Below, in pieces: positions 5,411-31,902 of a DNA stretch of 64,000 bases; within the stretch, counting starts at the first letter, position 1, and each line of letters opens with the position of its first letter. The notes below the pieces were generated by a model. It was given only the letters and a program-made list of their open reading frames with translations, was not told where the DNA came from and did not search any database. This DNA is from Candidatus Woesebacteria bacterium (GTDB lineage Bacteria > Patescibacteriota > Microgenomatia > UBA8517). The position numbers and the translations under genes are program-made. The stretch spans positions 813,304 through 877,303 of the forward strand of contig CP055307.1 of assembly GCA_013374835.1 (NCBI GenBank), given 5' to 3'.

Positions 5411-5836
5411 TTATTCAACTACCAGCGTTCCTTCCATTCCAAGCTGTCTGTGATTGCCTATATCGCAGTAGAATGTGTAAATTCCAGGCTCCGCTTCGAA
5501 ACTAAATTCCATACCACTTTTAAGGTTTTCTTTAACTCCCAGCTCGTCTATCACAAAAGTGTGAATACCGCTGTTTTCCGCTACTTTGATAGTAATTTTC
5601 GGACCTTTTACCGTAATCTCGTTTGGTTCAAAGAAATAATTGCCTGATCTTATTTCAACCATTTCTATTTCAGCTTGATCGCTTTCCGCAGACTCTTTAT
5701 CAACATTTTCCCCTACCTCTTGATTGCTAGTAGTCATAAAAACATTTTGATTTCCTTTACCTTTAAAAACATAAATTCCTACTAATAGCAGCACTATTAC
5801 ACCAAGTGCTACTATAATGCCAGTATTTTTAATCAT
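5411..5836 (-). CDS. membrane-anchored cupredoxin (azurin/plastocyanin-like type-1 copper protein)
   Basis: N-terminal TM anchor. His in SGIHTF. C-terminal FYCDIGNHRQLGM gives C-x4-H-x4-M, the azurin-like ligand spacing. Confidence 0.75.
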   Translation of the reverse strand: MIKNTGIIVALGVIVLLLVGIYVFKGKGNQNVFMTTSNQEVGENVDKESAESDQAEIEMVEIRSGNYFFEPNEITVKGPKITIKVAENSGIHTFVIDELGVKENLKSGMEFSFEAEPGIYTFYCDIGNHRQLGMEGTLVVE

Positions 5837-5852
5837 CAGCTATCACCCCCTT

Positions 5853-6335
5853 TTAATCTAGATATTTATCCGGGTTTTTTTTGAACATATCTAAACAAGT
5901 TTTTTTACAAAAGTAGAATTGACGTTTTTTATACTTATAAGAAAACGGTGCTGTTTTGGGACACAATCTTGTTTTACAGACAGGATCGTGCGCCAAAGGG
6001 ACAAGATCACTCATTTTTTTATTTAAGATTTTTTCGAAATCTGTATTTTTGTATTTTTTGATCAAAAACTCACGTATAAGGCTTGTTGATTTAATAAAAT
6101 TAGGATCTGAAATTTTATAGAAAACATTTTTGCCTTTTTTATTTGTTTCAACAACGCCCGCGTCGCGAAGGATGCCAAGATGCTGACTTAGATTGGCTTG
6201 TGGAATATCGAGCATTTCTTCGATTTCTGCAACACATAGTTTTTTGCTTCCAAGAAGGCTTATTATTTCCAATCTTTTAGGGTGGCTTATGGCTTTAAGA
6301 AGATCAGCGTGGAGTTTGAATACTTGATGATACAT
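5853..6335 (-). CDS. ArsR/SmtB-family HTH regulator fused to a C-terminal Cys-rich YHS/TRASH-like metal-binding domain
   Basis: wHTH region LCVAEIEEMLDIPQANLSQHLGILRDAGVV. C-terminal tail CKTRLCPKTAPFSYKYKKRQFYFCKKTCLDMFKKNPDKY. Confidence 0.75.
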   Translation of the reverse strand: MYHQVFKLHADLLKAISHPKRLEIISLLGSKKLCVAEIEEMLDIPQANLSQHLGILRDAGVVETNKKGKNVFYKISDPNFIKSTSLIREFLIKKYKNTDFEKILNKKMSDLVPLAHDPVCKTRLCPKTAPFSYKYKKRQFYFCKKTCLDMFKKNPDKYLD

Positions 6336-6377
6336 ATTCGATATTTCGAATATATTACTTTCTAAGTTTTAAGTCAA
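6334..6377 (-). promoter_or_regulatory. promoter-operator cassette copy 1: TTGACT-N17-TATATT overlapping perfect palindrome ATATTCGA-TATT-TCGAATAT at the ArsR-like start codon
   Basis: Minus strand: TTGACT (6377-6372), 17-nt spacer, TATATT (6354-6349). The palindrome at 6334-6353 runs into the ATG at 6335-6333. The cassette lies in the last codons of ccdA. Confidence 0.5.
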
Positions 6378-7086
6378 TAAGCGCTTCTGAATTTTTTAAA
6401 ACAAAAGCCGAGAGAGTTCCGTATATACCAGTTAACATTAAAACGCCGAAAATTATTAATAATATACCGGATATTTTTTTTATATTTGGCCCGTATTTAT
6501 TTAGTATTTTTAACTTGGGGTAAAAAAAATCAAACGACAATCCGATTAATAAAAAGGGTAAAGAAAGACCCAGCGAAAATAAAAAAAGAAGAATTAGCGC
6601 AGAAGAAAAGGCTTGGGAAAAACTTATCCAAAGAAGTATTGTTGCCAAGACAGGTCCCACACACGGGGTCCATGAAAAAGCAAAAAACGCGCCAAGAATA
6701 AACCCTCCTGCTAAAGAGAATTTTGTCGGCCTCCGGTTTATAGAATAAGTTTTGTAGAATAAATCTATCTTTATAAATTCACCTAATAAAAGCCCCAGAA
6801 ATATAATTAGTACTGCCGAAACTAATCTAATGAATTCGCTATACATCGCTACGGATCTGGCTAGCGAATTTATTGTTGCTCCCATTATAAAAAATACCGA
6901 AATAAAACCCAGAGTAAAAAGTACTGCGTTTTTTAAAAATATTATTTTTGATTTTTTGTTTCCAATACCCGACGCTGAAAGATAGCTAACATAAATGGGG
7001 GCTATGGGGACTAAACAACCCGCAAAAAAAGTTAAAAAACCGGCAATAAATGAGGTCAAAAAATTAACGATCGAAATCGGAGGCAT
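6355..7086 (-). CDS. ccdA: cytochrome c-type biogenesis / thiol-disulfide transporter CcdA (DsbD-beta family)
   Basis: Six-plus TM helices with the conserved Cys-containing motifs FLAGCLVPIAPI and SWTPCVGP. Confidence 0.8.
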   Translation of the reverse strand: MPPISIVNFLTSFIAGFLTFFAGCLVPIAPIYVSYLSASGIGNKKSKIIFLKNAVLFTLGFISVFFIMGATINSLARSVAMYSEFIRLVSAVLIIFLGLLLGEFIKIDLFYKTYSINRRPTKFSLAGGFILGAFFAFSWTPCVGPVLATILLWISFSQAFSSALILLFLFSLGLSLPFLLIGLSFDFFYPKLKILNKYGPNIKKISGILLIIFGVLMLTGIYGTLSAFVLKNSEALIDLKLRK

Positions 7087-7091
7087 TAAAT

Positions 7092-7829
7092 TTAATTAAG
7101 CATTGCGTCAACCGCGCTTTTTAGCTGATCAAGCGGTATAGCTCCGGGAATTAGTTTTGTTTCTCCTGTTTCAGTATTTAGGAGTATATTTCCAGGCGTG
7201 CCGGTAACACCAGCACGGACACCCGAGTCGTAGTCAGCACTTACCAGATCTGCCGTTTCGCCCGAATCAAGACATGTTTGGAATCCTGCTTGATTTAATC
7301 CAATTTCTACAGCAAAATCAGGAAGAAGTGCTAGATCCAGACCATTATTCGCCGGGGTTACTTCGAATATTTTATCTATATATTGCCAAAAAGCTTCTTC
7401 TCCACCAAGCTTTCCTGCGCATTCTGCCGCCTCTGCCTCTTTAGGCGCTTTTGAATGTAGCTGCTCCAAAGGAAAATGCCTATAAACCCACATAACTTGA
7501 CCATTATACTCCTCCATTAACCTTTGTACAGTTTCATGAAAGTTCTTACAAAAAGGACACTCAAGATCCGAGTATTCTATAAGCGCTAACTTAGCACCTC
7601 TATCGCCTCTTACCCAATCTTTATCTGTGACTGGATCGACATCTTTTGCTATAGGCTCGACGGGAGCTGTTGGATTATTTTTTAGCGCATTCGAAGCTTC
7701 ATTTTTGGAAAGCACTTGCCCCTTTTCCATCATTTTTACTTTTGTCCAGAGGCTACCGATTATAAACGACCCAACAACAAGAGCGATAACCAGTAAGTAA
7801 ATGAAGGCATTGTTTTTGTTAATATTCAT
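7092..7829 (-). CDS. membrane-anchored thioredoxin-fold thiol:disulfide oxidoreductase (DsbA/TlpA-like, CPFC active site)
   Basis: DLECPFCKNFHE CxxC motif in a thioredoxin-like domain. N-terminal TM anchor. I placed the start at the ATG at 7829; the track used an upstream TTG at 7871. Confidence 0.75.
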   Translation of the reverse strand: MNINKNNAFIYLLVIALVVGSFIIGSLWTKVKMMEKGQVLSKNEASNALKNNPTAPVEPIAKDVDPVTDKDWVRGDRGAKLALIEYSDLECPFCKNFHETVQRLMEEYNGQVMWVYRHFPLEQLHSKAPKEAEAAECAGKLGGEEAFWQYIDKIFEVTPANNGLDLALLPDFAVEIGLNQAGFQTCLDSGETADLVSADYDSGVRAGVTGTPGNILLNTETGETKLIPGAIPLDQLKSAVDAMLN

Positions 7830-10273: not shown

Positions 10274-11089
10274 TTAGGTCTCTTCAAATTCTTTGACAAT
10301 TTCTTTCATAAACTGGTTTGCTTCCCTTAAAAATTGGTTTGATTCTTGAAGAAGGCTGATTGTATTATTGTAAACTTTTTCTAAATCCTTGTCTTTGATA
10401 CTACCGGACTGTATCGACGCAATATTGGTCTGAGCGGCTACTTCTTTGTCTATACTTCTTGTTAGCTTGTTTTCTGTTTCTATGATCCATCTTTCTATTT
10501 TTGTGGTATCGTGATCACCTTTTTGACGAACTTTTTCGGTTTTATTTTTGATATCCTCCAGGATGGAGCTTGTTTCGGTCTTAAATATTTCCACCTTTCC
10601 GACGGGTACAACAAGAAGGACTTCGTAAATTAAAGGTTTAGTTAAAAAAAAATGCTCTGCAGCCTCAAGCGAATCTTCTGAAAGATCAGTAAGTGTTCCA
10701 GCAGAGGGAATCTGGCTTTTGTGATTTTTAAACCAGGCCACTTCGCTATCTATTCGTGTAAAAAGCCCTTGTTTTTCGGCATCCGTAATCCCATCCGATT
10801 CGGAAAGAAGCATTCTTAATGTAGTAAGATATGTTATTACCACGTCGTCTCTTTTTTCAAGCATTATTGCCGTTGCGTCTCTGGCTTTTGTTTGAGATGC
10901 AAGAGTTTTTGCCTGATTATACTGAGTTTTGGCAAGAAGATAATCAGAGTGTGCCTTTTTATAAAGCTCGAAGGTATAAACATAATCTTTGTAGGCTTTT
11001 TGATAATCAAAATCTTCTTGGGAAAAAGTGACGTGGACCGAGAAGAAAAATAGTATAAAAAATAAAAGAATCCCCAAGAGTCTTTTCAT
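10274..11089 (-). CDS. hypothetical secreted protein
   Basis: N-terminal signal peptide (LLGILLFFILFFFSVHVTFS). Helical, charged remainder. Confidence 0.5.
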   Translation of the reverse strand: MKRLLGILLFFILFFFSVHVTFSQEDFDYQKAYKDYVYTFELYKKAHSDYLLAKTQYNQAKTLASQTKARDATAIMLEKRDDVVITYLTTLRMLLSESDGITDAEKQGLFTRIDSEVAWFKNHKSQIPSAGTLTDLSEDSLEAAEHFFLTKPLIYEVLLVVPVGKVEIFKTETSSILEDIKNKTEKVRQKGDHDTTKIERWIIETENKLTRSIDKEVAAQTNIASIQSGSIKDKDLEKVYNNTISLLQESNQFLREANQFMKEIVKEFEET

Positions 11090-11113
11090 AGAATTTATTG
11101 TAGCAAAAAATGC

Positions 11114-12460
11114 TTAACAGATTCTATATAAAGGATCACTAAGAATAATCCTTATTCTGTTTAATTGTTTCCTCATTTTTTTAAACCCGGTAGATTCATT
11201 TTGTCTTATTCTTTCTCTTGTTACTCCAAAAATTTTTGCAATTTCTTCGAGTGTAAGACCTTCTCTTTCATAAATTTTCCTGAATAAATTTATATCTACC
11301 TCATCCAATTCGTTTGGATTGCTTGGTAACGGGATATCAAGATTAAGGTCTGAAATATACTGAAGGTATTCTTTATCGTTACTAAAAGATACATCTTCCC
11401 CAATTAAAGAGCCACTTCGCAGCAAAAGTACTGCAATTTCTCTTTTGCTAAAATCGTATTTTGTTTTTCTAGCTTGATTTTCATTTTTTGCAAGAGTCAG
11501 TAAATATTCTCTTATACTGCGACGGAAATCTTTATGTGATATTTCATAGTCTATATTAGAGTTCGTATCCCTTACGGTCTCGCCAAGAGTTATGTCATTA
11601 TTATCTTTGCCATTTATTTCTAATGGCTTATCAAGAGATGTCGGTTTTTGAACAGATTCGCGTATAAATCTAATTGTATTTACACTAATACCTAAATCTT
11701 CGGCTATTTCTTCATCGGTTATGTTTGTGCTTCCTAAATGCTGGAATAGCTTTTCCTCAGAACGTCTAATGCGAAAATAAAGATGAGTTATATCTTCAGG
11801 GAATTTTATTAGCCGACCGTTGCTTTTGATATAGCGAAGTATTGCTTGCCTCACCCAAATAGAAGCATATGTAGAAAATCTTTTACCAAGAGTGTGGTCA
11901 TACTTTTGTACGGCTTTTATTAAACCAATTGTTCCTTCCTGAACAAGATCTTCGAGCGGTATATTTAATCTGTTGTTTTCGTATTTGCGTGCAACAAAGA
12001 GCACAAGCCCCAAATTGGCTTCAATCATAATTTGTGCAGCTTTTTCGGATGTTTCGGGATCGAACGCAGTGGAATTTATCATCTTTGAAAGAAATATTTC
12101 TTCAGGATGTGTAAGAAGGCGTACGTTCCTGTGTTTTTTTGAATACCGGCTTATAATAAATTCTTCAAAATATTCGTCCGTTAATATGGAATCTTTTGAA
12201 CCTGTTGCTATCTTGTGATTTTCAGACGACCAATAATTTTCATCAAAAACTGCTATCGCTGCAAGTATTGCCAATACCCTTTGGTGCGTATTTTCATCGG
12301 TTATTCCCAATTCCGAAAGGTGCACTTGAGATATGGCAACAGGCTCTTTACCGAATTCGTGAAGCAAAGGGGCATAACCATAGAGTTCACGAATTCTGAT
12401 TGATACTTTGAAATATTTATCCTGTTCTAAATTTTTGGGTATATTAAATTCTACAGTCAT
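11114..12460 (-). CDS. rpoD: RNA polymerase sigma-70 family factor (RpoD-like)
   Basis: Region 2 DLVQEGTIGLIKAVQKYD...FSTYASIWVRQAI and region 4 LTLEEIAKIFGVTRERIRQ. Confidence 0.85.
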   Translation of the reverse strand: MTVEFNIPKNLEQDKYFKVSIRIRELYGYAPLLHEFGKEPVAISQVHLSELGITDENTHQRVLAILAAIAVFDENYWSSENHKIATGSKDSILTDEYFEEFIISRYSKKHRNVRLLTHPEEIFLSKMINSTAFDPETSEKAAQIMIEANLGLVLFVARKYENNRLNIPLEDLVQEGTIGLIKAVQKYDHTLGKRFSTYASIWVRQAILRYIKSNGRLIKFPEDITHLYFRIRRSEEKLFQHLGSTNITDEEIAEDLGISVNTIRFIRESVQKPTSLDKPLEINGKDNNDITLGETVRDTNSNIDYEISHKDFRRSIREYLLTLAKNENQARKTKYDFSKREIAVLLLRSGSLIGEDVSFSNDKEYLQYISDLNLDIPLPSNPNELDEVDINLFRKIYEREGLTLEEIAKIFGVTRERIRQNESTGFKKMRKQLNRIRIILSDPLYRIC

Positions 12461-20942: not shown

Positions 20943-22046
20943 TTACTCTATTAGGCTGTCTACAAATTCCGAAAGCGAATTTGCGGATAAAAGTTTTGGA
21001 ATTTCGCCCGCTGTAACTAAAAGCATTAGGAAAAGAAGAACCACCATGCCGGCTATATGAATTGATGATTCAATTTTGGGGAGTATTTTTTTGCCAAGAG
21101 CCGCTTCGATTGATATCAAAAGTACCCGCCCGCCGTCCAACGGAGGAAATGGAATTAAATTCACAAGCGCTAAATTTATTGATATTATTCCGACAAATTC
21201 GATAAGGGGCAGTAATCCTATACTTGCTACTTCTGCTATAAATACCGTCACACCAAGAGGGCCCGCTATTCCCTTTGGCTTTTGTCCTTTGAAAAGTTCG
21301 GAAAAAATAAACTCAAAGCCGGCTATTGTTTTTTCGGAAACATATGCTGCTTTTTGTGCTCCATATTTTGTATAAACGAAAGGTCTTTCAATAACTGGGG
21401 GGTAGTAAATCTCATGTGGTATAAATTGAATACCAAGAAGCCCTTCACCTTCTGGTGATTCTAATCTTATAACTAATTCCACATCTTTGGTCTTTGTAAT
21501 ACCATCCGCTTGGGATTCTACTTTTAGCATTACTGCTTTTCCTTTGTTTTTTGCTATCAGATCCGGAAAATATTCATAGTCCAGATTTTTTTTGCCGTTA
21601 AATTCTACTATCACGTCACCTTTTTTGAGACCTGCGACTTCGGCGGGTGAAGTAACTGAAACATCGGTAATTTGTACTCCGCGCGGAATACCTGTGTACC
21701 AGTATATTATCGAAAAACAAATTATTGCGAAAAGAAAATTCATTAAAATTCCTGCTATTGATATAAAAACTCTTATAAGCTTTGATTTATTAACAAAGGC
21801 TTTTTTCGGTTTAGTTACTCTATCTTCGCCGGACTCACCGTGAAGCCTTACAAAACCTCCAATCGGGAGTGCGTTTAGAGAATAAATAGTACTTCCTATC
21901 TTGACTCCCCAAATCCTTGGAGGAAGACCTATACCAAATTCTTCAACCCACACTCCAAAGAGCTTTGCGACCAAATAATGGCCAAGTTCATGGATGAGTA
22001 TGAGTACAGAAAGAGAAATGACTGCGATTATTATTAAAGAAATCAT
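20943..22046 (-). CDS. rseP: RIP zinc metalloprotease RseP (site-2 protease, M50 with PDZ)
   Basis: HELGHYLVAKLFG HExxH in TM1, a PDZ-like middle region, and a C-terminal LDGG motif. Confidence 0.85.
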   Translation of the reverse strand: MISLIIIAVISLSVLILIHELGHYLVAKLFGVWVEEFGIGLPPRIWGVKIGSTIYSLNALPIGGFVRLHGESGEDRVTKPKKAFVNKSKLIRVFISIAGILMNFLFAIICFSIIYWYTGIPRGVQITDVSVTSPAEVAGLKKGDVIVEFNGKKNLDYEYFPDLIAKNKGKAVMLKVESQADGITKTKDVELVIRLESPEGEGLLGIQFIPHEIYYPPVIERPFVYTKYGAQKAAYVSEKTIAGFEFIFSELFKGQKPKGIAGPLGVTVFIAEVASIGLLPLIEFVGIISINLALVNLIPFPPLDGGRVLLISIEAALGKKILPKIESSIHIAGMVVLLFLMLLVTAGEIPKLLSANSLSEFVDSLIE

Positions 22047-22047
22047 A

Positions 22048-22599
22048 TTAACCTAGAAGTTCTTTTTCTTTTGCCTCCCCCAGTTCGTCTAATAATTTAT
22101 TGTATTTATCGACCAAATTTTGGATACTTTTTTCATGCTGGAATCTTTCGTCTTCTGAGATTTGTTTTTTTTCAAAGCTATCTCGAACTGCGTTTATTGC
22201 ATCAACTCTTATTCTTCTTATCATTATTTTACCCTGTTCGAGCTTTGAGTTTAGCAGTTTAACAAATTTTTGTCTGTCCTCTGTTGTAAGAGGCGGAATT
22301 GAAATTCTAATAATATCACCGTCTATTGAGGGGTTAAAGCCTAAGTTTGCAGCAATAATTCCTTTTCTAATATCGCCGATTATTGATTTATCCCATGGGT
22401 CGATAACTATTGTCTGGGGATCGGGCGATGTAATTGAGGAAAGCTCGATTAATTTTAGTTTTTGTGTGCCGCCATAAGCGTCTATTATGATATTTTCTAC
22501 AAGTGAAGGAGTTGCGCGACCTGTTCTTATGCCCGCAATATCGGACTTAATAAGATTAACAACCTCATCCATCTCATGCTTAATCTTGGCTTCATCCAT
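22048..22599 (-). CDS. frr: ribosome recycling factor
   Basis: Full-length RRF pattern (DAYGGTQKLKLIELSSITSPDPQTIVIDPWD). Confidence 0.9.
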   Translation of the reverse strand: MDEAKIKHEMDEVVNLIKSDIAGIRTGRATPSLVENIIIDAYGGTQKLKLIELSSITSPDPQTIVIDPWDKSIIGDIRKGIIAANLGFNPSIDGDIIRISIPPLTTEDRQKFVKLLNSKLEQGKIMIRRIRVDAINAVRDSFEKKQISEDERFQHEKSIQNLVDKYNKLLDELGEAKEKELLG

Positions 22600-22634
22600 C
22601 TTTGGTTATTATAGCACGAAATAATTTCAAAAAA

Positions 22635-23093
22635 TTATTTACCTATCTCAATTCTCTTAAAACGCCCGAGGCGGATATTCTCTCCGGTTTTTGTAATTGT
22701 TTCTTTTATTAGATCTTCGACCTTTTTTGCAGGGTCTTTAATAAAATCCTGGCTTAGGAGCTCTTTTTCATTTTTGGGGTCCATAGATGCGACCTGCATT
22801 GCAAGGTCCTCACCTAAATTTTGAAAAAGCTCGTTTTTGGCGACAAAATCAGTTTCAACAAGAAGCTCAAGCATACTTGCCACTTTGCCCGTGTGGTGTC
22901 TGTAAACAAAAACAGAGCCTTGGGTAGTATCTCTGTCAGCTCTTTTTAAAACCTTTTCAAATCCTTCTTTTTTGAGAATTTCTATGGCTTTTTTTTCGCT
23001 TCCACCAACTTCTTCCAAAACCTGTTTTACCCTCATTACGGGAGCACCTGTTTCGTCTCTTAATTTTCGTATCTGATCACTATTTATCGCCAT
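22635..23093 (-). CDS. tsf: elongation factor Ts (short form)
   Basis: N-terminal UBA-like QIRKLRDETGAPVMRVKQVLEE. I chose the start at the internal Met to reduce overlap with rpsB. Confidence 0.8.
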   Translation of the reverse strand: MAINSDQIRKLRDETGAPVMRVKQVLEEVGGSEKKAIEILKKEGFEKVLKRADRDTTQGSVFVYRHHTGKVASMLELLVETDFVAKNELFQNLGEDLAMQVASMDPKNEKELLSQDFIKDPAKKVEDLIKETITKTGENIRLGRFKRIEIGK

Positions 23094-23796
23094 TTTTTTT
23101 GAGTTTCTTGTCTTTTCCTTTTCCATCTAAAACCGCTTGACAGAAAAGATCGAGTACATATTCAATCGCTTTTGTCGCGTCGTCATTCATTGGAACAGGC
23201 CAGTTAACGCCTTCCGGGTCCGCGTTTGAATCTACAACTCCGACGATCGGTATTCCAAGCTTATTTGCCTCTTTAACTGCCATAGATTCTTTGTGCGTAT
23301 CCAAAATTACAAGAAGATCAGGCAAGTCTTTCAGGCCGACTATTCCACCAAAATTTTTTTCAAGCTTTTCGATTTGACGAGTCATTAAGAGTCTCTCTTT
23401 TTTTGTGTAGCCTTCTTTTTTGGCAACCTTTATTTTTTCCTTAAGGTCGTTTAGATTTTTGATAGATTTGACGATTTGATCAAAATTCGTAAGTGTACCC
23501 CCAAGCCATCTTTCATTTATATAAGGACAAGAAGTTTTCTCGGCTATTTCTTTTATTTTATCTTTAGCTTGCTTTTTGGTTCCAACAAGAAGGATTGTTT
23601 TGCCGCGTGAGGAAAAGTCTTTAATTGCTTCCAAAGCCTCTTTGAGCAGCTCGTGAGTTTTGATTAAATCAAATACGTAAACTCCGTCTTTAACTGTGTA
23701 CATAAAAGGCTTCATTTTAGGATTCCAACGCTTATATTGGTGTCCAAAATGAGCACCTACTTCAAGCAGCTTATCTAGTGACAATTCGGTTGACAT
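23080..23796 (-). CDS. rpsB: 30S ribosomal protein S2
   Basis: LLEVGAHFGHQYKRWNPKM. The ATG at 23796 is preceded by the SD AAGGAGGT; the track start was an upstream GTG. Confidence 0.9.
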   Translation of the reverse strand: MSTELSLDKLLEVGAHFGHQYKRWNPKMKPFMYTVKDGVYVFDLIKTHELLKEALEAIKDFSSRGKTILLVGTKKQAKDKIKEIAEKTSCPYINERWLGGTLTNFDQIVKSIKNLNDLKEKIKVAKKEGYTKKERLLMTRQIEKLEKNFGGIVGLKDLPDLLVILDTHKESMAVKEANKLGIPIVGVVDSNADPEGVNWPVPMNDDATKAIEYVLDLFCQAVLDGKGKDKKLKKNGDK

Positions 23797-24026
23797 ATAT
23801 TTACCTCCTTGGTCCTCCACTTGCCAGAAGTAATTCAGGAGGTTTCCGGCAAGTGTGTGTTTTTGACTTTTATGATTATAGCAGTTTTAAAAACAAAATC
23901 AAAGAGATAATTATTTTCTATCTAATTGGTATTCTTTTTTGCTTTTTCATAGCAGTAAGTGGCTTCGATTAGTTTTTCCAAGAAAACTTGCGTTTACTTT
24001 TTATTATTAGAAACAAGTAAATAATT

Positions 24027-25280
24027 TTATTTGTAGAATAACTTCACTATACACTCAAGTGTATCAATATCTGTTGGATTCAAATAATAACCTTTATGTC
24101 TCATTTCTTCAGCATACCTTCTGCCTTGGGCCTTGAAAAATTTCCCTAGTTTTTCTTGGCCTGCTCGTATTCTGTATTCAACAAAGTCTTTAGTAATTTC
24201 TGCAAGTATCTGACGATCTTCTGAGGTTAAATTTACGAATTGTTCTTTCTCCGACTGAAGTGAGGATATTATGGTATCAATTTTCCAAGTAATACGAGAG
24301 TACTCTTTTCGGATGATTTCGAGTTGATCTGGCGCAATGTCATTGTTGTATGTCATTATAACAAACGGTAAGTATCTAGCTACAAAACCTAAGCCAATGC
24401 TTTTAGCCTTTTCAAGAGAAATAATTGGTATTTTGGGCAGCAATAGATAAGTATGGTGGAAACCACTTGTTAATAAAGATGTATAGGGAATATTATGTGT
24501 TGCCACTACGGCGCCTTGAGCTAGCGTCAATTCAGATAATTCATACTTTTCTACAATCAGTTCGGGCATGAGCGCAACACCTATTTTTGGATCTAAGACA
24601 TATCCTTCTAGGCCAATTGAATCTAGGGGCAAACCATATTCTCTTACCCTTGAAATCATAACTCTTGGTGGCAATTGATAAAAAAAGCTACGCACATGTT
24701 TAGTATTTTTAGGGTAAATAATTTTGTCTTTTATTAAAGCTTCTCTGTCCTTTGGAATATCTACCATTAAGACGTTTCTTTTTTCTGAATGAAAACGACG
24801 ATTTCCACATACAGTGCAAGAGTTTAAACTAATACTATCAACCGATTGCATGTAACCACAGGCGTTACAAATGTTTACACTCACAGAATCTATATAGATA
24901 ACGCCAGAAGTAAAAAGCAGTCCAATTTTTTTCTCAAGCCAGGTTTTTGTGGTGTCATCATCATCTCTAATTATATCTCTCCCTTCTTTCGGGATTCCTA
25001 ATTCTTTTAAAATATTGTATTTATCAATTAGAAGTGAGGTAGAAAAATCTCTTCTAGATTTATATCGATCTTGCTGGGCTGAAAATGCCTTGTCCATTCT
25101 CACGCCTACACAATTCCATAAATCTACTCTAGGTATTTTCCTTCCAGATTCATATTCGACTACTCTAGTTATATTTTCGGCCACAAGCATAGGAATGAAA
25201 CGATGAACAACTCTCTCGTTTCTCGTGTCAAGGTTCTCAGCCGCTGATGCAGTAATTATTTTCTGCTCAGACTCTATCAT
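24027..25280 (-). CDS. hypothetical protein with internal Cys4 zinc ribbon
   Basis: CNACG-x13-CTVCG ribbon. No other motif recognised. AT-rich flanks on both sides. Confidence 0.5.
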   Translation of the reverse strand: MIESEQKIITASAAENLDTRNERVVHRFIPMLVAENITRVVEYESGRKIPRVDLWNCVGVRMDKAFSAQQDRYKSRRDFSTSLLIDKYNILKELGIPKEGRDIIRDDDDTTKTWLEKKIGLLFTSGVIYIDSVSVNICNACGYMQSVDSISLNSCTVCGNRRFHSEKRNVLMVDIPKDREALIKDKIIYPKNTKHVRSFFYQLPPRVMISRVREYGLPLDSIGLEGYVLDPKIGVALMPELIVEKYELSELTLAQGAVVATHNIPYTSLLTSGFHHTYLLLPKIPIISLEKAKSIGLGFVARYLPFVIMTYNNDIAPDQLEIIRKEYSRITWKIDTIISSLQSEKEQFVNLTSEDRQILAEITKDFVEYRIRAGQEKLGKFFKAQGRRYAEEMRHKGYYLNPTDIDTLECIVKLFYK

Positions 25281-25401
25281 ATTATTAAAAAAATAACTTT
25301 AAAGCCTATAATAGTCTAAGTTTATTTGTATCTTTACAAAATTAGTTATTATATTTTAAGTATAATTTAATATTCAATTTAACATTAATTAACGGATTTT
25401 T

Positions 25402-26913
25402 ATGAAAAAAGAAGAAAAAATTTGTATATACCAAAATGAAGACGGAAAACTTTATATGCCCGATTCTAGGGTTAATATCCAGAAAAGATACCAGGCCCCA
25501 ATCAATGACGTCTTAAGCTTTTTTAAAAAATTAAACAATAAAAATATATATAGTATTTATTTAAGGGGATCTGTTGTTTTCGGATTGGGAATAAAAAATA
25601 TTTCTGATATTGATTTTTTTATAGTAACTTTAAAGCCATTAACTGATTTTGACATACTAGCAATTAAAAAATATGTTGGTAAGTTAAACAGAAAATATTC
25701 TTTTATAACTAGATTTGACATTGGATATTTTACTTTAGATCAAATATTGTCAATGAAAGAGAATGTTCTGATTAAATTAACTTCGGTATGTTTATATGGT
25801 AAGGATATTAAAGAAGAAATTAAGAACCCCAAGCCTGGTAGAGATGTTGCCATTTCCTTACCACACTTAGAAGAAAAGATGCTAAAAACCAAGAATGAAA
25901 TTAGGGCTGGTCTATACGATAAAACGAACACGAAAGCTATGTGTGTATGGATAATGAAGCACATCGTTAGGTCTGGTTTTGAACTCGTGTCTGAGCGAGA
26001 AAAATGTTTTACCAGGGATTTAGGTTTGTGTTTTGAGAAATTTTCAAAGTATTACTTAGACAAAAAGGGGGATATGCATAAAGCATTAACTCTAGCCTTA
26101 GAACCAACAAATAATACTAAAGTAATAGAAAAAATATTTAGTGGCCTGGGTGATTGGTTAGTGTTTGAAGGGAAAAATTTAGGGCTAATTTCTGTTAATT
26201 GTGATGATATAAATAGAATTGTCACCGAGAAGGTTGAATCTCTTTTTGGCAGAGACAGAATTATTTGCTTGCTGCGTTATGGTCCAAAAATCCAATTTGA
26301 CGGTATATCCCCTGCGGATTTTGATTTTTTATTATTGCTTGATAAATATCAAGACAAAGATTACTTGTTGTTATCATTTTTTAAAAAACTAAATCTTCCG
26401 GTAGAAATATTTATCGACTATAGGGATCAAATTCTTTTAAGGGGAATTAAAAATTATCAAAGAGGTCGACATGGATCATACTTCTTTAAAATTCTTGCTT
26501 CGGCAGACACTTTGTTGGGTAAGAATTTTTATAAAGAAAACGAAAGCGAGTTGGATAGAAACAAAATTAATTCAGATTTGTTATATAGAGTTGAAGAATA
26601 TTTTTATAGAATACAAAAATCTGTAATCGATGAACAGAATTCTAGCAAAAAAGAAATAGAAAAATATTTGGGTAGAATTATAACCGATTTACTTTTAGTG
26701 GCTGGTGATATTCAATTCTCAGACATGCATAGATATCACTACACAAGAGTGATGTCTGACATACTAGAACAGACTAATGTCATAAGCGCTGAAACAAAAA
26801 AATTAATAGCCAAACTTCAATCTAAACCACACGTTGATATCAACCTTTTGAGTAGACTTATCGGTGTATTATATAAACAGTATATAGAAATAAGACAGAA
26901 TACTCGATTATGA
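25402..26913 (+). CDS. tandem Pol-beta-superfamily nucleotidyltransferase domain protein
   Basis: Two hG[GS]-x9-13-DxD cores: LRGSVVFGLGIKNISDIDFFIV near residue 50, and LRYGPKIQFDGISPADFDFLLLL near residue 290. Each is followed by a helical region. Confidence 0.6.
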   Translation: MKKEEKICIYQNEDGKLYMPDSRVNIQKRYQAPINDVLSFFKKLNNKNIYSIYLRGSVVFGLGIKNISDIDFFIVTLKPLTDFDILAIKKYVGKLNRKYSFITRFDIGYFTLDQILSMKENVLIKLTSVCLYGKDIKEEIKNPKPGRDVAISLPHLEEKMLKTKNEIRAGLYDKTNTKAMCVWIMKHIVRSGFELVSEREKCFTRDLGLCFEKFSKYYLDKKGDMHKALTLALEPTNNTKVIEKIFSGLGDWLVFEGKNLGLISVNCDDINRIVTEKVESLFGRDRIICLLRYGPKIQFDGISPADFDFLLLLDKYQDKDYLLLSFFKKLNLPVEIFIDYRDQILLRGIKNYQRGRHGSYFFKILASADTLLGKNFYKENESELDRNKINSDLLYRVEEYFYRIQKSVIDEQNSSKKEIEKYLGRIITDLLLVAGDIQFSDMHRYHYTRVMSDILEQTNVISAETKKLIAKLQSKPHVDINLLSRLIGVLYKQYIEIRQNTRL

Positions 26914-27626
26914 CGACGGTAAAATCATCTCAATATAAAAATTTATATTTTACCTATGCTTTATCAAAGCCAAGGCCTTCTTACAATACGATAATAATTC
27001 TTGACGGCTTGCCAAGCAATCCATCTGTTAAGGATCAGCTAATACAAAAACTATCACAACATGGGCTTGATGTCTTTTTCCCAAGGTATGAGGGAACTTG
27101 GGAATCGAGGGGAGAATTCTTAAAAAAGGCCCCAAGCAAAGCTATTATTGAATTTATCAAAGCGTTGCGAAGCGGCATCATCTTAAATGACAAAAAATAT
27201 ATTGCTCAAAAGATATTTATTTTGGGAGCAAGTTTTGGCGGTGGGGTTGCCTTAGATATTGCCGGTCAAAATATTGCCGATAAGATTTGTACCATCTCGC
27301 CGGTAATAAGTTTTAAAAAGGTTGTCGGAATAGATACTTTAGAAAACTATTTAAGAGTGGTATTCCCTAGGGATTATCGCTTTAATCCAAAAAATTGGCA
27401 TAGACTTTTAGAAGATGATCTGTGGAGCCTAGATGATAACAAAATAAAAAATTCTTCTGATATTTTAATCATAGCCGGAGATGCTGATGATCAGATTAAA
27501 AAGGCTGATATTCTCAAATTTGGGAAAAAGAACAAAATCAGAATTAGTATTTATAATCTTGGCCACATAACCCTGAGTAAGATTACAAAACCTATGTTGG
27601 GAGAAATTTTAGGATTCTTTTCTTAA
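26910..27626 (+). CDS. alpha/beta-hydrolase (Ser-Asp-His) coupled to the upstream NTase gene
   Basis: Nucleophile elbow GASFG, later IIAGDADD and LGHITL. The ATGA start overlaps the upstream stop codon. Confidence 0.7.
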   Translation: MTTVKSSQYKNLYFTYALSKPRPSYNTIIILDGLPSNPSVKDQLIQKLSQHGLDVFFPRYEGTWESRGEFLKKAPSKAIIEFIKALRSGIILNDKKYIAQKIFILGASFGGGVALDIAGQNIADKICTISPVISFKKVVGIDTLENYLRVVFPRDYRFNPKNWHRLLEDDLWSLDDNKIKNSSDILIIAGDADDQIKKADILKFGKKNKIRISIYNLGHITLSKITKPMLGEILGFFS

Positions 27627-27656
27627 TAAAAATATTAGAAAATTTTGTTACTGGAG

Positions 27657-28553
27657 TTAACTACTATCTGCTATTAATAACAGATTTGAAAACAGATTAT
27701 AAATAGTAACAGGCCCAACTCCTCCCGGTACGGGGGTGACAAACGATGCCTTTTTTTTAACAGATTCAAAATCAATATCACCCTTTGGGGATCCTACGTC
27801 TATTAAGACGCTACCTTCTTTAATCATATCTTTGCTGATTAGATTCGGAGTCCCTGTTGCGCTTATAACTACATCTGCCGATTTTGTAATTTCGGCAAGA
27901 TTTTTTGTTTTTGAGTTACATTTAAAAACAATTGTAAATTTTTCTTTTTCAAGCAATTTAACCAAAGCGCTCCCTACCATCCCTCTCGCTCCAACGATCG
28001 CTATAGATGAATTTTTACCAATGTTTGAAGCTTGAGTAAGAATATCAAAGACGGCCTTTGCAGTGGGATGAATATATGAATCGCCCCTTAAACCGTCCAC
28101 ATCTTTTTTTCTTGGAATTGTTTTGATTATTCTGGATTTGTATTTTTTAAGCCTTGCCGGCAACGGAAGCTGAACTAAAATACCATGGACTTTTTTGTCT
28201 TTTCTTACCTTTTTAATGTACTTAATTATTTCTGAAGCTTTTGTTTCCTCTTCGAAAAATTTGGCCGTAAATTTAATACCAACTCTTGCCGCCGCTTTCA
28301 TTTTAAGAGAAACATAAAGAGCACTCGCAGGATCGTTTCCGACCATAACCACAACAAGATGGGGGAAAATTCCGTAATTTCTTTTTAATTCCTCGACTTT
28401 ATTTTTTATTATTGATTCTTCCAGTTCAGCCCATCGACGTCCGTTAAAAATTACTGTCATATTCGTTATTTTAGCAAATGATTGGCGACTAATTCTAAAA
28501 AACACAAGTATTGTAACAAAAATAGAGAAAAAAAATAGAAAGCGATATTCCAA
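27657..28553 (-). CDS. folD: bifunctional methylene-THF dehydrogenase/methenyl-THF cyclohydrolase
   Basis: NADP Rossmann motif IVGARGMVG and the FolD family pattern. Carries an extra N-terminal hydrophobic segment. Confidence 0.85.
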   Translation of the reverse strand: MEYRFLFFFSIFVTILVFFRISRQSFAKITNMTVIFNGRRWAELEESIIKNKVEELKRNYGIFPHLVVVMVGNDPASALYVSLKMKAAARVGIKFTAKFFEEETKASEIIKYIKKVRKDKKVHGILVQLPLPARLKKYKSRIIKTIPRKKDVDGLRGDSYIHPTAKAVFDILTQASNIGKNSSIAIVGARGMVGSALVKLLEKEKFTIVFKCNSKTKNLAEITKSADVVISATGTPNLISKDMIKEGSVLIDVGSPKGDIDFESVKKKASFVTPVPGGVGPVTIYNLFSNLLLIADSS

Positions 28554-28566
28554 GAAATAAGATCTG

Positions 28567-29787
28567 CTATAAGGTGGGGAATTTTCTGCAAAGAGATTTC
28601 ACTTCTTTGTTTATTTTATCTACCGAATCTCCTAAGTAGACTCTATTTATAAAATCCGCTATAAGCATCATTTCTTTCACCCCCATACCCCGCGTTGTAA
28701 CGGCGGGCGTACCAAGTCGAATACCAGAAGGATTGTTCGGTGGATTGGGGTCACCGGGAATAGAATTATAGTTAACTATAATTCCTGCTTTTTCTAATTT
28801 TATCGAAAATTCCTTTCCCAAAACGCCTTTTTGCCTAAGATCTATAAGAATAATATGATTATCTGTCCCCCCCGAAACAAGATCAAAACCTTTAGATTTA
28901 AGCTCTTTTGCTAGGGTTTTCGAATTTATGATAATTTGTTTGACATATTTTTTGAAGCTCTCTGACTGTGCAGCTTTTAAGGCAATAGCAATAGCTGCTG
29001 TTTGGGCGTTGTGCGGACCGCCTTGAAGTCCGGGGAATACTGCCCTATCAATCTTCTTTGCCATATCAGGATCCCGTCGTAAACCCTTTTTTGTCACCAT
29101 TATAAGTGCCCCGCGCGGACCTCTTAAAGTCTTATGAGTCGTTGTGGTAACAACATCTGCATCTCTTACAGGCGACGGATGGACACCGGCTGCCACAAGG
29201 CCAGCAATATGGGAAATATCAGCAAGAAGAATTGCACCCACCTTATCTGCAACTTGCGAAAAAAGTGTCCATTCAAGTTTTCTCGGATATGAGGTAGTAC
29301 CTGCGATAATTATTTTTGGTTTAACTTTTTTGGCGAGTTTTTCAAGCGCTTCGTAATCAATAAAACCATCTGCGCCAACTTCATACTGAAAACTCTGAAA
29401 AAATTTACCTGAAAAAGTAATTTTTGGGTGACCGTGGGTAAGATGGCCCCCTGAGGATAATGCAAGACCTAGGATTTTATCACCCGGATTAAGAAGCGCC
29501 ATATAAACTGCCGAGTTTGCCGGTGAGCCTGAATAGCTTTGTACGTTTGCATAAGGAACACAAAACAACTTTTTAGCTGTTTCAATTGCAATGCTTTCTA
29601 TCTGATCAATGTATTTATTTCCTTGATAGTAGCGCTTTCCTGGATATCCTTCTGAGTACTTATTATTAAGCATACTACAAAGAGCCTGCCTTACTTCCTT
29701 CGGCGCATAATTTTCAGAGGGAATTAGCATTAAGGTTTCTTTCTGCCGCTTTTCTTCTTTTCTGATTAAATTTTTAATTTTCGTCAT
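28567..29787 (-). CDS. glyA: serine hydroxymethyltransferase
   Basis: PLP-lysine region TTTTHKTLRGPRG and an SHMT-typical N-terminus. Confidence 0.9.
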   Translation of the reverse strand: MTKIKNLIRKEEKRQKETLMLIPSENYAPKEVRQALCSMLNNKYSEGYPGKRYYQGNKYIDQIESIAIETAKKLFCVPYANVQSYSGSPANSAVYMALLNPGDKILGLALSSGGHLTHGHPKITFSGKFFQSFQYEVGADGFIDYEALEKLAKKVKPKIIIAGTTSYPRKLEWTLFSQVADKVGAILLADISHIAGLVAAGVHPSPVRDADVVTTTTHKTLRGPRGALIMVTKKGLRRDPDMAKKIDRAVFPGLQGGPHNAQTAAIAIALKAAQSESFKKYVKQIIINSKTLAKELKSKGFDLVSGGTDNHIILIDLRQKGVLGKEFSIKLEKAGIIVNYNSIPGDPNPPNNPSGIRLGTPAVTTRGMGVKEMMLIADFINRVYLGDSVDKINKEVKSLCRKFPTL

Positions 29788-30422
29788 TTTTCAAATATTT
29801 TATCGAGTATTCTTGAGATTTCTTGTGATACTTGTTTAACAGATACTTCTCCATCTACGACAAACCAATCAAGGCCTCCCCAGTTGTCTCTTGCCATTTC
29901 TCTATAGGCATTAACCAGTTTTTGCATATATTCAATCCCTTCTTTGTCAAATGGGTCATTATCTTTTTGTTCTTTGCTTTTTCTTTGAATTGCACACTGT
30001 GCGTTTACATCGAGAAGAATAACCGCGTCTGGAAGATGTTCATCCATTACTACCTTAGATATTTCTATTATCTGATTCATATCCCCACCTTCAGCATAAC
30101 CTTGATAGGCGGCTGTTGAGGTGTGGCTTCTGTCTGTTAGTATAGATACTCCTTCACTTATATTTGGGGTAACCACTTCATCGAGCCAAAGCTTTCTGGC
30201 GGCAAAAAAAAGAGCCACTTGCCCCTCCGGACCGATAAGATTTTTTTCTTTAAGATTGAATATCAGTTCTCGAATTTTTTCAGCGCTTTCTACACCTCCC
30301 GGCTCTCTTGTTACCAACAACCTTATGCCTTTTTCCTGAAGATATTCTTTTGCATGTTTTATTTGTGTTGTTTTTCCGCTTCCTCCTACTCCCTCAAATA
30401 CGATAAATTTTCCTCTTTCCAT
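29784..30422 (-). CDS. tmk: thymidylate kinase
   Basis: P-loop FIVFEGVGGSGKTTQ and a DRS-like lid. Confidence 0.9.
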   Translation of the reverse strand: MERGKFIVFEGVGGSGKTTQIKHAKEYLQEKGIRLLVTREPGGVESAEKIRELIFNLKEKNLIGPEGQVALFFAARKLWLDEVVTPNISEGVSILTDRSHTSTAAYQGYAEGGDMNQIIEISKVVMDEHLPDAVILLDVNAQCAIQRKSKEQKDNDPFDKEGIEYMQKLVNAYREMARDNWGGLDWFVVDGEVSVKQVSQEISRILDKIFEK

Positions 30423-30451
30423 CCTCCCACTATTAATCTAAAATTGGGCTG

Positions 30452-31384
30452 ATGTCAACTTTTAAAAACGGGGTTGATGAGCAATATTTGGCACTTCTTG
30501 ATGATATTTTACAAAACGGCGTCGAAAGCGATGATAGAACGGGAACCGGGACTAAAAAAGTTTTTGGGAGAATGCTTAAATTTGATTTGACACTTGGCTT
30601 TCCTCTTCTAACCACAAAAAAAGTGTGGTTTAAGGGTGTAAAAGAAGAGCTTCTTTGGTTTATAAAGGGAGAGCGAAATATTAGAAATCTTGTAATTAGT
30701 GGTGTAAATATCTGGAACGAATGGCCTTTTCAGAAATATCTTGAATCAAAAGGTCTGTCCAAGCGCTATCCGAAATATTCTCCCTCATGGAAAAAGAAGA
30801 TGGATGAGTTTGTTGGAAAAATTAAGTCAGATGCTAACTTTGCAGAAAAATACGGAGATCTTGGACCTATATATGGATACGTCTGGCGTCACTGGAAAGG
30901 AAGGGACGGACAGGTTGATCAGTTAAAAAAAGCCATTGACTTGATAAAAAATAGTCCCCACTCAAGGAGGATAATCGTCACTGCTTGGGATCCTTCTACG
31001 CTGGAACAAGTAGCGCTTCCACCTTGTCATCTTTATTACCAATTTCAGGTGGTTGGCAATAGTTTAAATTGCTTTATGCTTCAGAGATCTGTCGATACAT
31101 TTCTCGGGCTTCCGTTTAATATTGCTTCGTATGCTCTTTTAACGCATATAGTTGCAAAGGTTGCAGGCAAAGTTCCCGGAGAATTAACAATGGCTTTGGG
31201 AGATACCCACCTTTATTTAAATCATATAAAACAAGCTAAAGAACAATTATCCCGCACGCCCAAAGCTTTACCAAAACTTATCTTAAATCCAAAGCTTTGC
31301 GATATTGACAATATTAATTCTGATTGGATTGAAATTGAAGGTTATAATCCACATCCACCCATAGCAGCACCTATTTCAGTATGA
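30452..31384 (+). CDS. thyA: thymidylate synthase (ThyA type)
   Basis: Active-site PPCH (ALPPCHLYYQF) and DRTGTGT. Confidence 0.9.
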   Translation: MSTFKNGVDEQYLALLDDILQNGVESDDRTGTGTKKVFGRMLKFDLTLGFPLLTTKKVWFKGVKEELLWFIKGERNIRNLVISGVNIWNEWPFQKYLESKGLSKRYPKYSPSWKKKMDEFVGKIKSDANFAEKYGDLGPIYGYVWRHWKGRDGQVDQLKKAIDLIKNSPHSRRIIVTAWDPSTLEQVALPPCHLYYQFQVVGNSLNCFMLQRSVDTFLGLPFNIASYALLTHIVAKVAGKVPGELTMALGDTHLYLNHIKQAKEQLSRTPKALPKLILNPKLCDIDNINSDWIEIEGYNPHPPIAAPISV

Positions 31385-31902
31385 AAATATCAATTGTTGC
31401 CGCAGTAAGTTTAAATAACACAATAGGGAAAAACGGAAAGCTTCCTTGGAATATAAAAGAGGATCTAGCAAGATTTAAAAAAATTACCACGGGACATCAT
31501 GTCCTAATGGGAAGAGCCACTTTTGAATCTATAGGAAAAGCTCTACCAAAAAGACAAAACATCGTAATCACTTCGGACAAAAAATTTAAAGCACCTGGGA
31601 TTTTTGTATTTGACAATCCGGAAAAGGCAATTGTTTTTGCTAAAAAACGCAAGGAGAACGAACTTATGATTATCGGTGGTGAATCGATTTATAAATATTT
31701 TTTGGAAAAATCTGATAGTATTTATCTTACGAGAATTCTTAAGAAATATAGTGGAAATCGGCATTTTCCCAAGATTGATTTTAATAAATGGATTGAGATT
31801 AAAAAAGAAACTCACAAAGAAAAAATGCCGCCTTTTGAATTTGTGGTTTTGGAAAGAAAGAAACGCCCGGTGTGCGATGCTTCTTATCAGCTGTGGAATT
31901 AA
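31381..31902 (+). CDS. folA: dihydrofolate reductase
   Basis: ISIVAAVSLNNTIGKNGKLPW and GRATFESIG DHFR motifs. Overlaps the thyA stop. Confidence 0.85.
   Translation: MKISIVAAVSLNNTIGKNGKLPWNIKEDLARFKKITTGHHVLMGRATFESIGKALPKRQNIVITSDKKFKAPGIFVFDNPEKAIVFAKKRKENELMIIGGESIYKYFLEKSDSIYLTRILKKYSGNRHFPKIDFNKWIEIKKETHKEKMPPFEFVVLERKKRPVCDASYQLWN

Follow-up and report, generated by a model that had tools for sequence, protein, structure and literature searches.

Which task could bring together two nucleotidyltransferase (NTase) domains and a hydrolase in the genome of an ultra-small bacterium? The question is raised by two adjoining genes in a 64,000-nucleotide stretch (the window) of a Candidatus Woesebacteria genome (contig CP055307.1, positions 813,304 to 877,303). 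A first-pass annotation of this DNA had described them as a two-gene cassette, in which an internally duplicated NTase is coupled to an alpha/beta hydrolase, and had proposed a toxin/defence or a small-molecule-modifying role. Both open reading frames (ORFs), of 503 and 238 aa, are present where they had been placed, and the NTase stop and the hydrolase start share an ATGA at 26910-26913. Our analysis showed that the two genes belong to a self-contained, horizontally mobile enzyme unit of ultra-small symbionts (Patescibacteria, or candidate phyla radiation [CPR], and DPANN archaea) with four conserved domains. These are an N-type NTase resembling the aminoglycoside nucleotidyltransferases (ANT) and kanamycin nucleotidyltransferase (KNTase), a paralogous C-type NTase, a Ser-Asp-His alpha/beta hydrolase, and a divergently transcribed protein with the fold of methionyl-tRNA synthetase (MetRS), here called X417; in the window, the two NTases are fused. 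The tight linkage of NTase and hydrolase was thus recognised correctly, but the divergently transcribed X417 gene is an obligatory third member, and its presence changes the likely target of the module.

A mobile unit of four conserved domains

Comparison of window positions 22001-30000 with all fetched relative loci (blastn) revealed a single block of homology of 3.6 kb, with neither flank matching. The block edges fall 14 nt and 4 nt beyond the outer stop codons, and the block is 84% identical to the loci L001 and L005 and 70% identical to the archaeal locus L002. The flanking genes of the window (rpsB, tsf, folD, glyA, and others) do not recur beside the unit in close relatives, where the flanks are unrelated. 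No terminal direct or inverted repeats were found around the block, just AT-rich noise. The protein identities of the three genes co-vary among loci (for example, 81/84/77% and 67/70/63%), and the ratios of nonsynonymous to synonymous substitution rates (dN/dS) of 0.09-0.23, obtained for all three genes against four relatives, indicate purifying selection and hence that the ORFs are real genes.

The composition of the unit is nearly constant. Among 5.8 billion proteins, 17 to 23 protein clusters were detected for the module, and among about 25 non-redundant loci, in each one of sufficient length, the C-type NTase adjoins both the hydrolase and a MetRS-like gene (X417 or its homologue F4, described below). 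Counted separately, X417 adjoins the NTase in every locus of sufficient length, and the hydrolase adjoins the C-type NTase in 24 of 24 such loci, mostly on the same strand and either overlapping or a few bases apart; at L017, it is convergent on the opposite strand. The hosts are mostly Patescibacteria (Shapirobacteria, Saccharibacteria, Paceibacterota, and Taylorbacteria), among which the occurrence is sporadic. Two groups of contigs are archaeal, one carrying ribosomal L35Ae (6.8e-21; L002 7644-8471) and a 179-aa L10e alongside the module (L002, L022) and the other carrying Rpb7/Rpo7 (SHS2_Rpb7-N, 3.9e-13; L009 5209-5823; L009, L023). Since the archaeal module proteins of L002 share 63-70% identity with the bacterial copies in the window, the sequences point to a recent transfer between bacteria and archaea. 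Chimeric assembly of the archaeal contigs is possible, yet the presence of the module in two independent archaeal contexts speaks against it. Near the module, L002 encodes two more NTP_transf_2 proteins, of 535 and 307 aa (5617-7224 and 10818-11741). Phage and viral collections contained no copies or relatives of the module, and no description of this gene combination was found in the literature.

The local context in the window agrees with this picture. All remaining ORFs between 20943 and 30422 (rseP, frr, tsf, rpsB, the 417-aa gene encoding X417, folD, glyA, and tmk) lie on the minus strand, and the spacers on the two sides of the NTase-hydrolase pair have GC contents of 14% (the divergent spacer) and 20% (27627-27656), compared with 30.2% in the NTase gene and 36.7% in the whole window. 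The opposite orientation, the AT-rich borders, and the acquired, accessory character that had been read from the DNA were all borne out: the genes form a sporadic, transferable unit with unrelated flanks rather than a housekeeping gene pair.

The nucleotidyltransferase halves and their partners

A profile search with the NTase, run exhaustively on 1.84 billion representative proteins, returned 1,245 matches, nearly all of which consist of a single unit. The common kind, the N-type, is a stand-alone protein of about 265 aa matching residues 7-262 of the window protein, while the rarer C-type is about 240 aa long and matches residues 265-500. The two types are separate genes of one cluster at L012, L013, L014, L016, L024, L029, L031, and L033, and in the protein P0061 a C-type unit is fused to the hydrolase. 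Alignment of the N-type and C-type family profiles (hhalign) gave 44% at an E value of 2.3e-4, identifying them as distant paralogues. The protein had been annotated as internally duplicated; a recent duplication is rejected by this result together with the split orthologues, each half being its own gene elsewhere, and a BLASTP comparison of the halves (a 17-residue match, E 0.035). Judged by its sequence, the 503-aa protein is a fusion of two distinct ANT/KNTase-type families.

In cultivated bacteria, plasmids of Bacillus, Vibrio, Pantoea, and Streptomyces carry stand-alone N-type homologues as single genes, surrounded by accessory genes of the GNAT, VOC, HD, and MFS types. One distant homologue of this type belongs to a Pantoea cluster that resembles those for nonribosomal peptide synthetases (NRPS) and that also encodes an AMP-binding enzyme and an alpha/beta hydrolase. 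The fusion partners of N-type units in other organisms are an HxlR helix-turn-helix domain and Ser/Thr protein kinases (P0082, P0157, P0163).

A search of the 5.8 billion proteins with the fused NTase identified 17 close homologues (55-100% identity) and one distant homologue. The first core consists of G56-S57, 11 residues, and D69-I-D71, with D106 as the third acid; the second consists of G294 (followed by P295), 11 residues, and D306-F-D308, with D339 as the third acid. The annotated motifs therefore hold for both cores, and only the spacing given for the first (GS-x12-DID) was off by one. All nine positions (G56, S57, D69, D71, D106, G294, D306, D308, and D339) are invariant in 16 full-length homologues. 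In the wider N-type family (24 members), G56, S57, D69, D71, and the helical-domain residues K186, R190, and R205 are invariant, and position 106 is D or E. In the C-half, D339 is invariant in the fused proteins and is replaced by D, E, N, or Q in the stand-alone C-type relatives, many of which keep the canonical GS where the clade of the window has GP; NYQRGRHGSYF and EEYFYRIQK are further signature motifs of this half. The predicted catalytic set is intact in the N-half and near-intact in the C-half.

Assignment of both halves to the Pol-beta NTase superfamily is supported by independent lines of evidence. For the N-half, these are the motifs, a score above the Pfam NTP_transf_2 cut-off (25.5 bits against 21, E 1.8e-5), and the secondary structure in the AlphaFold2 model; weak sequence and profile matches to ANT(9)/AadA and further matches to ANT(4') were also obtained. 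The C-half has no Pfam match, and its assignment is based on the motifs, on the match of the C-type profile to 9xbd, an NTase domain of solved structure (E 1.5e-5, in an alignment that pairs the G-S and DxD motifs), and on the modelled core, with the GP and the variable D339 as caveats. In the AlphaFold2 model (predicted local distance difference test [pLDDT] 80, predicted template-modelling score [pTM] 0.54), each half consists of an NTase-like core of strands and helices and, after it, a helical bundle. The best matches of the model in a Foldseek search of the PDB were AadA (5lpa, E 1.7e-4, target template-modelling score [TM] 0.59) and ANT(9) (6xxq, target TM 0.57), followed by ANT(3'')(9), ANT(4')/KNTase, and LinB, with the antitoxins of the minimal nucleotidyltransferase (MNT) type ranking lower. 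Each half is thus modelled as a full two-domain unit of the type that adenylylates antibiotic hydroxyls.

The hydrolase carries a catalytic triad of S108 (in a GASFG nucleophile elbow), D193, and H219, which is invariant in 15 orthologues, as is the loop PRYEGTWESxGxFL. The elbow motif and the order Ser-Asp-His place it among the alpha/beta hydrolases, as had been annotated. Its match to Pfam Hydrolase_4 (E 1.1e-5, 25.3 bits) is just below the cut-off of 27, and six other alpha/beta-hydrolase families match weakly.

The third gene product, X417, has no match in Pfam, NCBIfam, or PADLOC. It has 22 homologues, distributed about as those of the NTase, and its AlphaFold2 model is of high confidence (pLDDT 88.6, pTM 0.88). 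When this model was searched against the PDB with Foldseek, the top 50 matches were all MetRS (best 2d54, TM 0.76, E about 1e-12, with 12-15% identity). The architecture comprises a Rossmann catalytic domain, a zinc-knuckle insertion, and a helical C-terminal domain; the four Cys of the knuckle are invariant, and the catalytic domain has many invariant charged residues. At the sequence level, no link to MetRS was obtained: a PDB profile search returned no MetRS, and hhalign against E. coli MetRS (the query being identical to 1f4l) gave 0.8%. At the position of HIGH, at the start of helix 1, the family has H/Q26-R-F/L-I/L/M (H26-R-F-I in the window), and where KMSKS would lie, in the loop that follows the last Rossmann strand, the sequence is a short P-K283-I-P, both positions being taken from the secondary structure of the model rather than from a residue-level superposition. 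The X417 family therefore appears to have lost the ATP-binding signatures of the synthetases. In the split-type clusters, a protein of 370-400 aa, F4, is encoded between the N-type and C-type genes. F4 is homologous to X417 (hhalign 95%, E 3.8e-8, covering residues 20-304 only) and likewise has neither HIGH nor KMSKS, so that a motif-less MetRS-fold protein is a constant member of the module.

Comparison with known systems showed that the parts come from known superfamilies but cannot be assigned to any of the specific families considered, namely ANT(9)/AadA, GlnE/GlnD, MNT-HEPN, CD-NTase (the cGAS/DncV-like nucleotidyltransferases), canonical MetRS, and the cupin-linked MetRS paralogues; that the module as a whole represents a new kind of system is a real possibility. 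AadA/ANT(3'')(9) and ANT(9) (5lpa, 6sxj), the best matches of the NTase in both structure and sequence, share with it the Pol-beta core and helical bundle of about 260 aa, the GS...DxD...D/E motif, and basic helical-domain residues. AadA is a monomeric single enzyme; here, two unlike units are joined in one chain and linked to a hydrolase and a MetRS-like protein, the identity is 13-16%, and the score with the NCBIfam model ANT_9 is 23.8 bits, far from the cut-off of 340 (other ANT models, 12-14 bits against 193-560). KNTase, or ANT(4') (1kny), has the same fold and is a homodimer in which both subunits jointly build the substrate cleft, providing a model for a pseudo-dimer of the N- and C-halves. 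Its chains are identical, whereas those of the module are distant paralogues, one with a degenerate GS.

GlnE (about 950 aa, acting on a protein tyrosine) likewise has two NTase and helical units per chain, and a likeness to GlnE/GlnD had been proposed. No GlnE/GlnD family was found in Pfam at E <= 1 or among the top 50 Foldseek PDB matches, and the halves of the window protein stem from separate genes rather than from duplication within a chain. The MNT-HEPN pairs (MntA-HepT) share the Pol-beta core, and the C-half and N-half profiles match MNT-type domains (9xbd and 1ylq). They differ in that the halves here are twice the size of an MNT, have their own ANT-type helical domain, and have other partners; a regular-expression search for Rx4-6H in the 503-aa protein and a Pfam search for HEPN families gave no match. 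As for the CBASS/CD-NTase systems, PADLOC gave no match for any of the three proteins, and CD-NTases were matched at E 0.05-0.09 only, on the shared core.

The closest precedent for X417 is the lineage of cupin-associated MetRS paralogues, the hydrazine synthetases, in which a MetRS fold was likewise recruited from translation into an accessory cluster. Their adenylation residues are intact, a cupin is invariably part of the same protein or encoded next door, and the products are O-aminoacyl esters (PMC2922099, PMC12376268). X417, in contrast, lacks HIGH and KMSKS, has no sequence match to MetRS, and is linked to NTases and a hydrolase; no cupin was annotated or recognisable among the recurrent neighbour families.

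Surroundings of the unit

The coordinates of the module and of the genes linked to it in relatives are collected in Table 1.

Table 1. Features of the module in the window and of linked genes at loci of relatives (L numbers)
Feature	Position	Strand	Remarks
Conserved 3.6-kb unit	24013-27630	.	MetRS-like gene, divergent spacer, fused NTase gene, and hydrolase gene; blastn block
X417, 417 aa, MetRS fold	24027-25280	-	four-Cys zinc knuckle C138, C141, C155, C158; divergent from NTase
Divergent intergenic spacer	25281-25401	.	14% GC; presumably both promoters
Fused NTase ORF, 503 aa	25402-26913	+	two Pol-beta NTase cores
N-type NTase half, residues 1-263	25402-26190	+	G56-S57 25567-25572; D69/D71 25606-25614; D106 25717-25719
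C-type NTase half, residues 264-503	26191-26913	+	G294-P295 26281-26286; D306/D308 26317-26325; D339 26416-26418
Alpha/beta hydrolase, 238 aa	26910-27626	+	S108 27231-27233; D193 27486-27488; H219 27564-27566
F3	L001 10223-11161, L004 8780-9718, L005 3846-4784, L007 5582-6520, L020 6383-7324, L025 2657-3595	-	convergent, just downstream of hydrolase
F3	L031 2488-3373	+	upstream of N-type gene; the one split-type locus among the 7
Inositol-monophosphatase-family gene	L013 4157-4888, L014 7436-8191, L029 (243-aa ORF)	same strand as hydrolase	Pfam Inositol_P

Like the genes themselves, the divergent spacer is conserved, with a mean column identity of 73% across 8 loci and an invariant CTATAA core, which reads CCTATAAT in 6 of the 8. 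Promoter-like hexamers are present in it at 25285-25312 (plus strand) and 25377-25348 (minus strand), and the counts in a promoter/terminator scan were not above chance. An Rfam scan of 23800-27900 detected neither a riboswitch nor a T-box. Its sole match, outside the module, was a sub-threshold t44/rpsB leader at 23808-23877 on the minus strand (31.7 bits against a gathering score of 44, E 5e-4), just upstream of rpsB, where the leader of ribosomal protein S2 would be expected.

The fused NTase gene contains a variable site in one lineage. At L010 (about 6100), L025 (about 1336), and L028 (about 7100), one base is inserted next to a C8 tract, at the equivalent of window position 26305 or so, between the G-P and the DxD of the C-half, splitting the gene into two overlapping ORFs. 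The three contigs derive from different samples, and L006 has the same tract in frame. The frameshift may mark a pseudogene or a phase-variable switch, or it may be an error of assembly.

Several further genes adjoin the module in relatives. F3, a protein of 312 aa, is encoded beside it in 7 loci and is absent from the window. By eye, its motifs KGGFAR...DLD and RTRDVTMNEL are reminiscent of class-II CCA/poly(A) polymerases; F3 was rejected as an NTase of that class, with no match in Pfam or the PDB and 0.2% in hhalign against E. coli Cca. In three split-type loci, the gene immediately after the hydrolase encodes a member of the inositol-monophosphatase (IMPase) family (Pfam Inositol_P, 1.4e-39). 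A Peptidase_S66 (LD-carboxypeptidase) gene is convergent with the hydrolase at L012 (5855-6898, minus strand; Pfam 1.3e-25 and 6.1e-27), as a single occurrence; this family includes MccF, which cleaves aminoacyl-adenylate antibiotics. Defence-type neighbours (MazE and DNA methyltransferases) are present at L003 only, the genes beside the module elsewhere being of other kinds. Linkage to tRNA genes is not consistent, and neither transporter nor tailoring genes are conserved around the module.

In the window, the module lies beside a thymidylate/folate cluster (folD, glyA, tmk, thyA, and folA; 27657-31902), and at the distantly related Saccharibacteria locus L013 (4973-9418) it lies beside dut, dCMP deaminase, folA, thyA, glyA, and tmk. 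Other loci have unrelated flanks, and this neighbourhood may be coincidental or may hint at a connection with nucleotide metabolism. The folD ORF (27657-28553, minus strand) has a listed TTG start and a hydrophobic 31-residue extension (MEYRFLFFFSIFVTILVFF...); because its Pfam domain begins only at residue 38, translation probably starts at an internal Met, residue 32. The EF-Ts-like ORF (22635-23126, minus strand) is only 163 aa long and lies directly downstream of rpsB (23080-23820, minus strand), with its listed start overlapping the rpsB end by 47 nt. A canonical MetRS gene was not found within the window, which says nothing about the rest of the genome.

Possible function and implications

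The fusions in both directions and the gene overlap suggest that the N-type NTase, the C-type NTase, and the hydrolase would form one complex, in which the two NTase halves would pair like a KNTase dimer around a common substrate cleft. The MetRS-like subunit would bind a small molecule resembling an amino acid, an aminoacyl-adenylate, or a nucleoside, the NTase pair would move a nucleotidyl (AMP) group onto a hydroxyl of the bound compound, and an ester or amide bond in that compound would be cut by the hydrolase. In this way, the compound would be inactivated, detoxified, or processed, an accessory trait for epibionts facing antibiotics made by the host or the community. We tentatively prefer this model of O-nucleotidylylation combined with ester or amide hydrolysis, with a probability of roughly 0.3, because of the ANT-type fold, the genomic habits of the N-type relatives, and the small-molecule precedent of MetRS-like proteins (PMC2922099, PMC12376268). 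The small-molecule-modifying role proposed by the first-pass annotation would fit the closest structures, AadA/ANT(9), ANT(4'), and LinB.

Several points weigh against this model. The small-molecule assignment is based on a likeness of predicted folds at 13-16% identity, and the NCBIfam ANT scores are far under their cut-offs. To our knowledge, the known ANT resistance enzymes act alone, and a conserved four-domain complex suggests something more elaborate. The C-half may be non-catalytic, with GP for GS in the clade and a third acid that varies elsewhere, and the NTase model leaves the relative placement of its domains uncertain (pTM 0.54). The X417 model retains the complete architecture of a synthetase, down to the zinc knuckle and the helical domain at the C-terminus, and tRNA binding would fit it equally well.

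This last point leads to a tRNA-directed activity, which we consider possible though unlikely. The MetRS-like subunit would dock a (perhaps aminoacylated) tRNA, the NTases would extend its 3' end or AMPylate it, in the manner of MenT/AbiEii toxins or of CCA-type repair enzymes, and the esterase would remove the aminoacyl group. The module would then serve in tRNA quality control or repair, or would arrest growth in conflicts. The superposition of X417 on full-length MetRS, zinc knuckle and C-terminal domain included, is consistent with this, as is the ester nature of the aminoacyl-tRNA bond, which suits a serine hydrolase; a fold kept without HIGH and KMSKS has a parallel in the cyclodipeptide synthases, which use aminoacyl-tRNA rather than ATP (PMC2922099). 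The C-terminal helical domain, however, is not conserved between X417 and F4, whose alignment ends at residue 304, and the fold neighbours of the NTase are small-molecule ANTs rather than tRNA NTases. The GG..DxD and R-D-x-T-x-N-E-L patterns of F3, linked in 7 loci, recall CCA/poly(A) polymerases, but this likeness has no statistical support and the window has no F3; nor is there a consistently linked tRNA gene. A biosynthetic role, in which an aminoacylated and/or nucleotidylylated metabolite would be made, the NTase replacing the adenylation lost by a MetRS-like ligase and the hydrolase acting as a transacylase or release enzyme, is more doubtful. Paralogues of MetRS and CysRS do serve as amino-acid ligases in secondary metabolism (PMC2922099), and the Pantoea NRPS-like cluster, the IMPase-family gene at three loci, and the many invariant charged residues in the X417 catalytic domain would all agree with it. 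CPR and DPANN genomes, however, are minimal and rarely encode secondary metabolism, the module lacks conserved transporter or tailoring genes, and known ANT-type NTases adenylylate hydroxyls, not carboxylates.

The presence of two unlike conserved NTase domains in one protein also recalls a protein-AMPylation switch, in which the halves would add and remove AMP on a protein such as the MetRS-like one, as in GlnE, or a toxin-antitoxin-like pair, in which the NTase would neutralise a toxic partner, as in MntA-HepT. The N-half profile weakly matches the AMPylator DrrA (E 0.0035) and MNT-type proteins, and the fusions of N-type domains to Ser/Thr kinases and HxlR regulators point the same way. We nevertheless regard this scheme as improbable: it leaves the serine esterase without a part, divergent transcription is atypical of toxin-antitoxin pairs, each half is a full ANT-type unit of 240-265 aa rather than a minimal MNT, and neither a HEPN motif nor a GlnE/GlnD match (Pfam, Foldseek) was found. 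Very unlikely is an anti-phage system based on a nucleotide second messenger, with a CD-NTase-like synthase and the hydrolase as effector. The sporadic, mobile nature of the unit, its occurrence in small symbionts, which favour compact defence systems (PMC12988326), the core-level likeness of the N-half profile to CD-NTases (E about 0.05-0.09), and the frameshift beside the C8 tract, a possible on/off switch, are compatible with such a system. It would, however, have neither a sensor nor a nuclease domain; the fold neighbours are ANTs rather than cGAS/DncV, none of the three proteins is recognised by PADLOC, the phage and viral collections hold no copies, and defence-type neighbours are confined to a single locus. 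The toxin/defence role that had been suggested for the pair therefore loses its support.

It is conceivable, though again unlikely, that a re-purposed MetRS-fold protein presents a tRNA or a ligand resembling an aminoacyl-adenylate to the hetero-fused ANT-type NTases and the esterase, as a previously unknown system encoded by a 3.6-kb cassette exchanged between CPR bacteria and DPANN archaea. If so, the cassette would represent a new route of tRNA 3'-end modification or repair, or of neutralising aminoacyl-nucleotide toxins.

CPR and DPANN genomes are tiny, and much of their coding content is unexplained. The module described here is compact, evolves under purifying selection, and is built from recognisable superfamilies in a combination for which no description was found, and its apparently recent crossing between bacteria and archaea implies a function useful to both kinds of episymbiont. 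X417 would be a second, highly divergent MetRS-like lineage outside translation and, unlike the known lineage, one without the ATP-binding motifs, which raises the question of what role an aminoacyl-tRNA synthetase scaffold plays when it is paired with separate nucleotidyltransferases. An antibiotic substrate would make the module a new mechanism of resistance, located in an environmental reservoir, and a tRNA substrate would make it a new RNA-modifying system.

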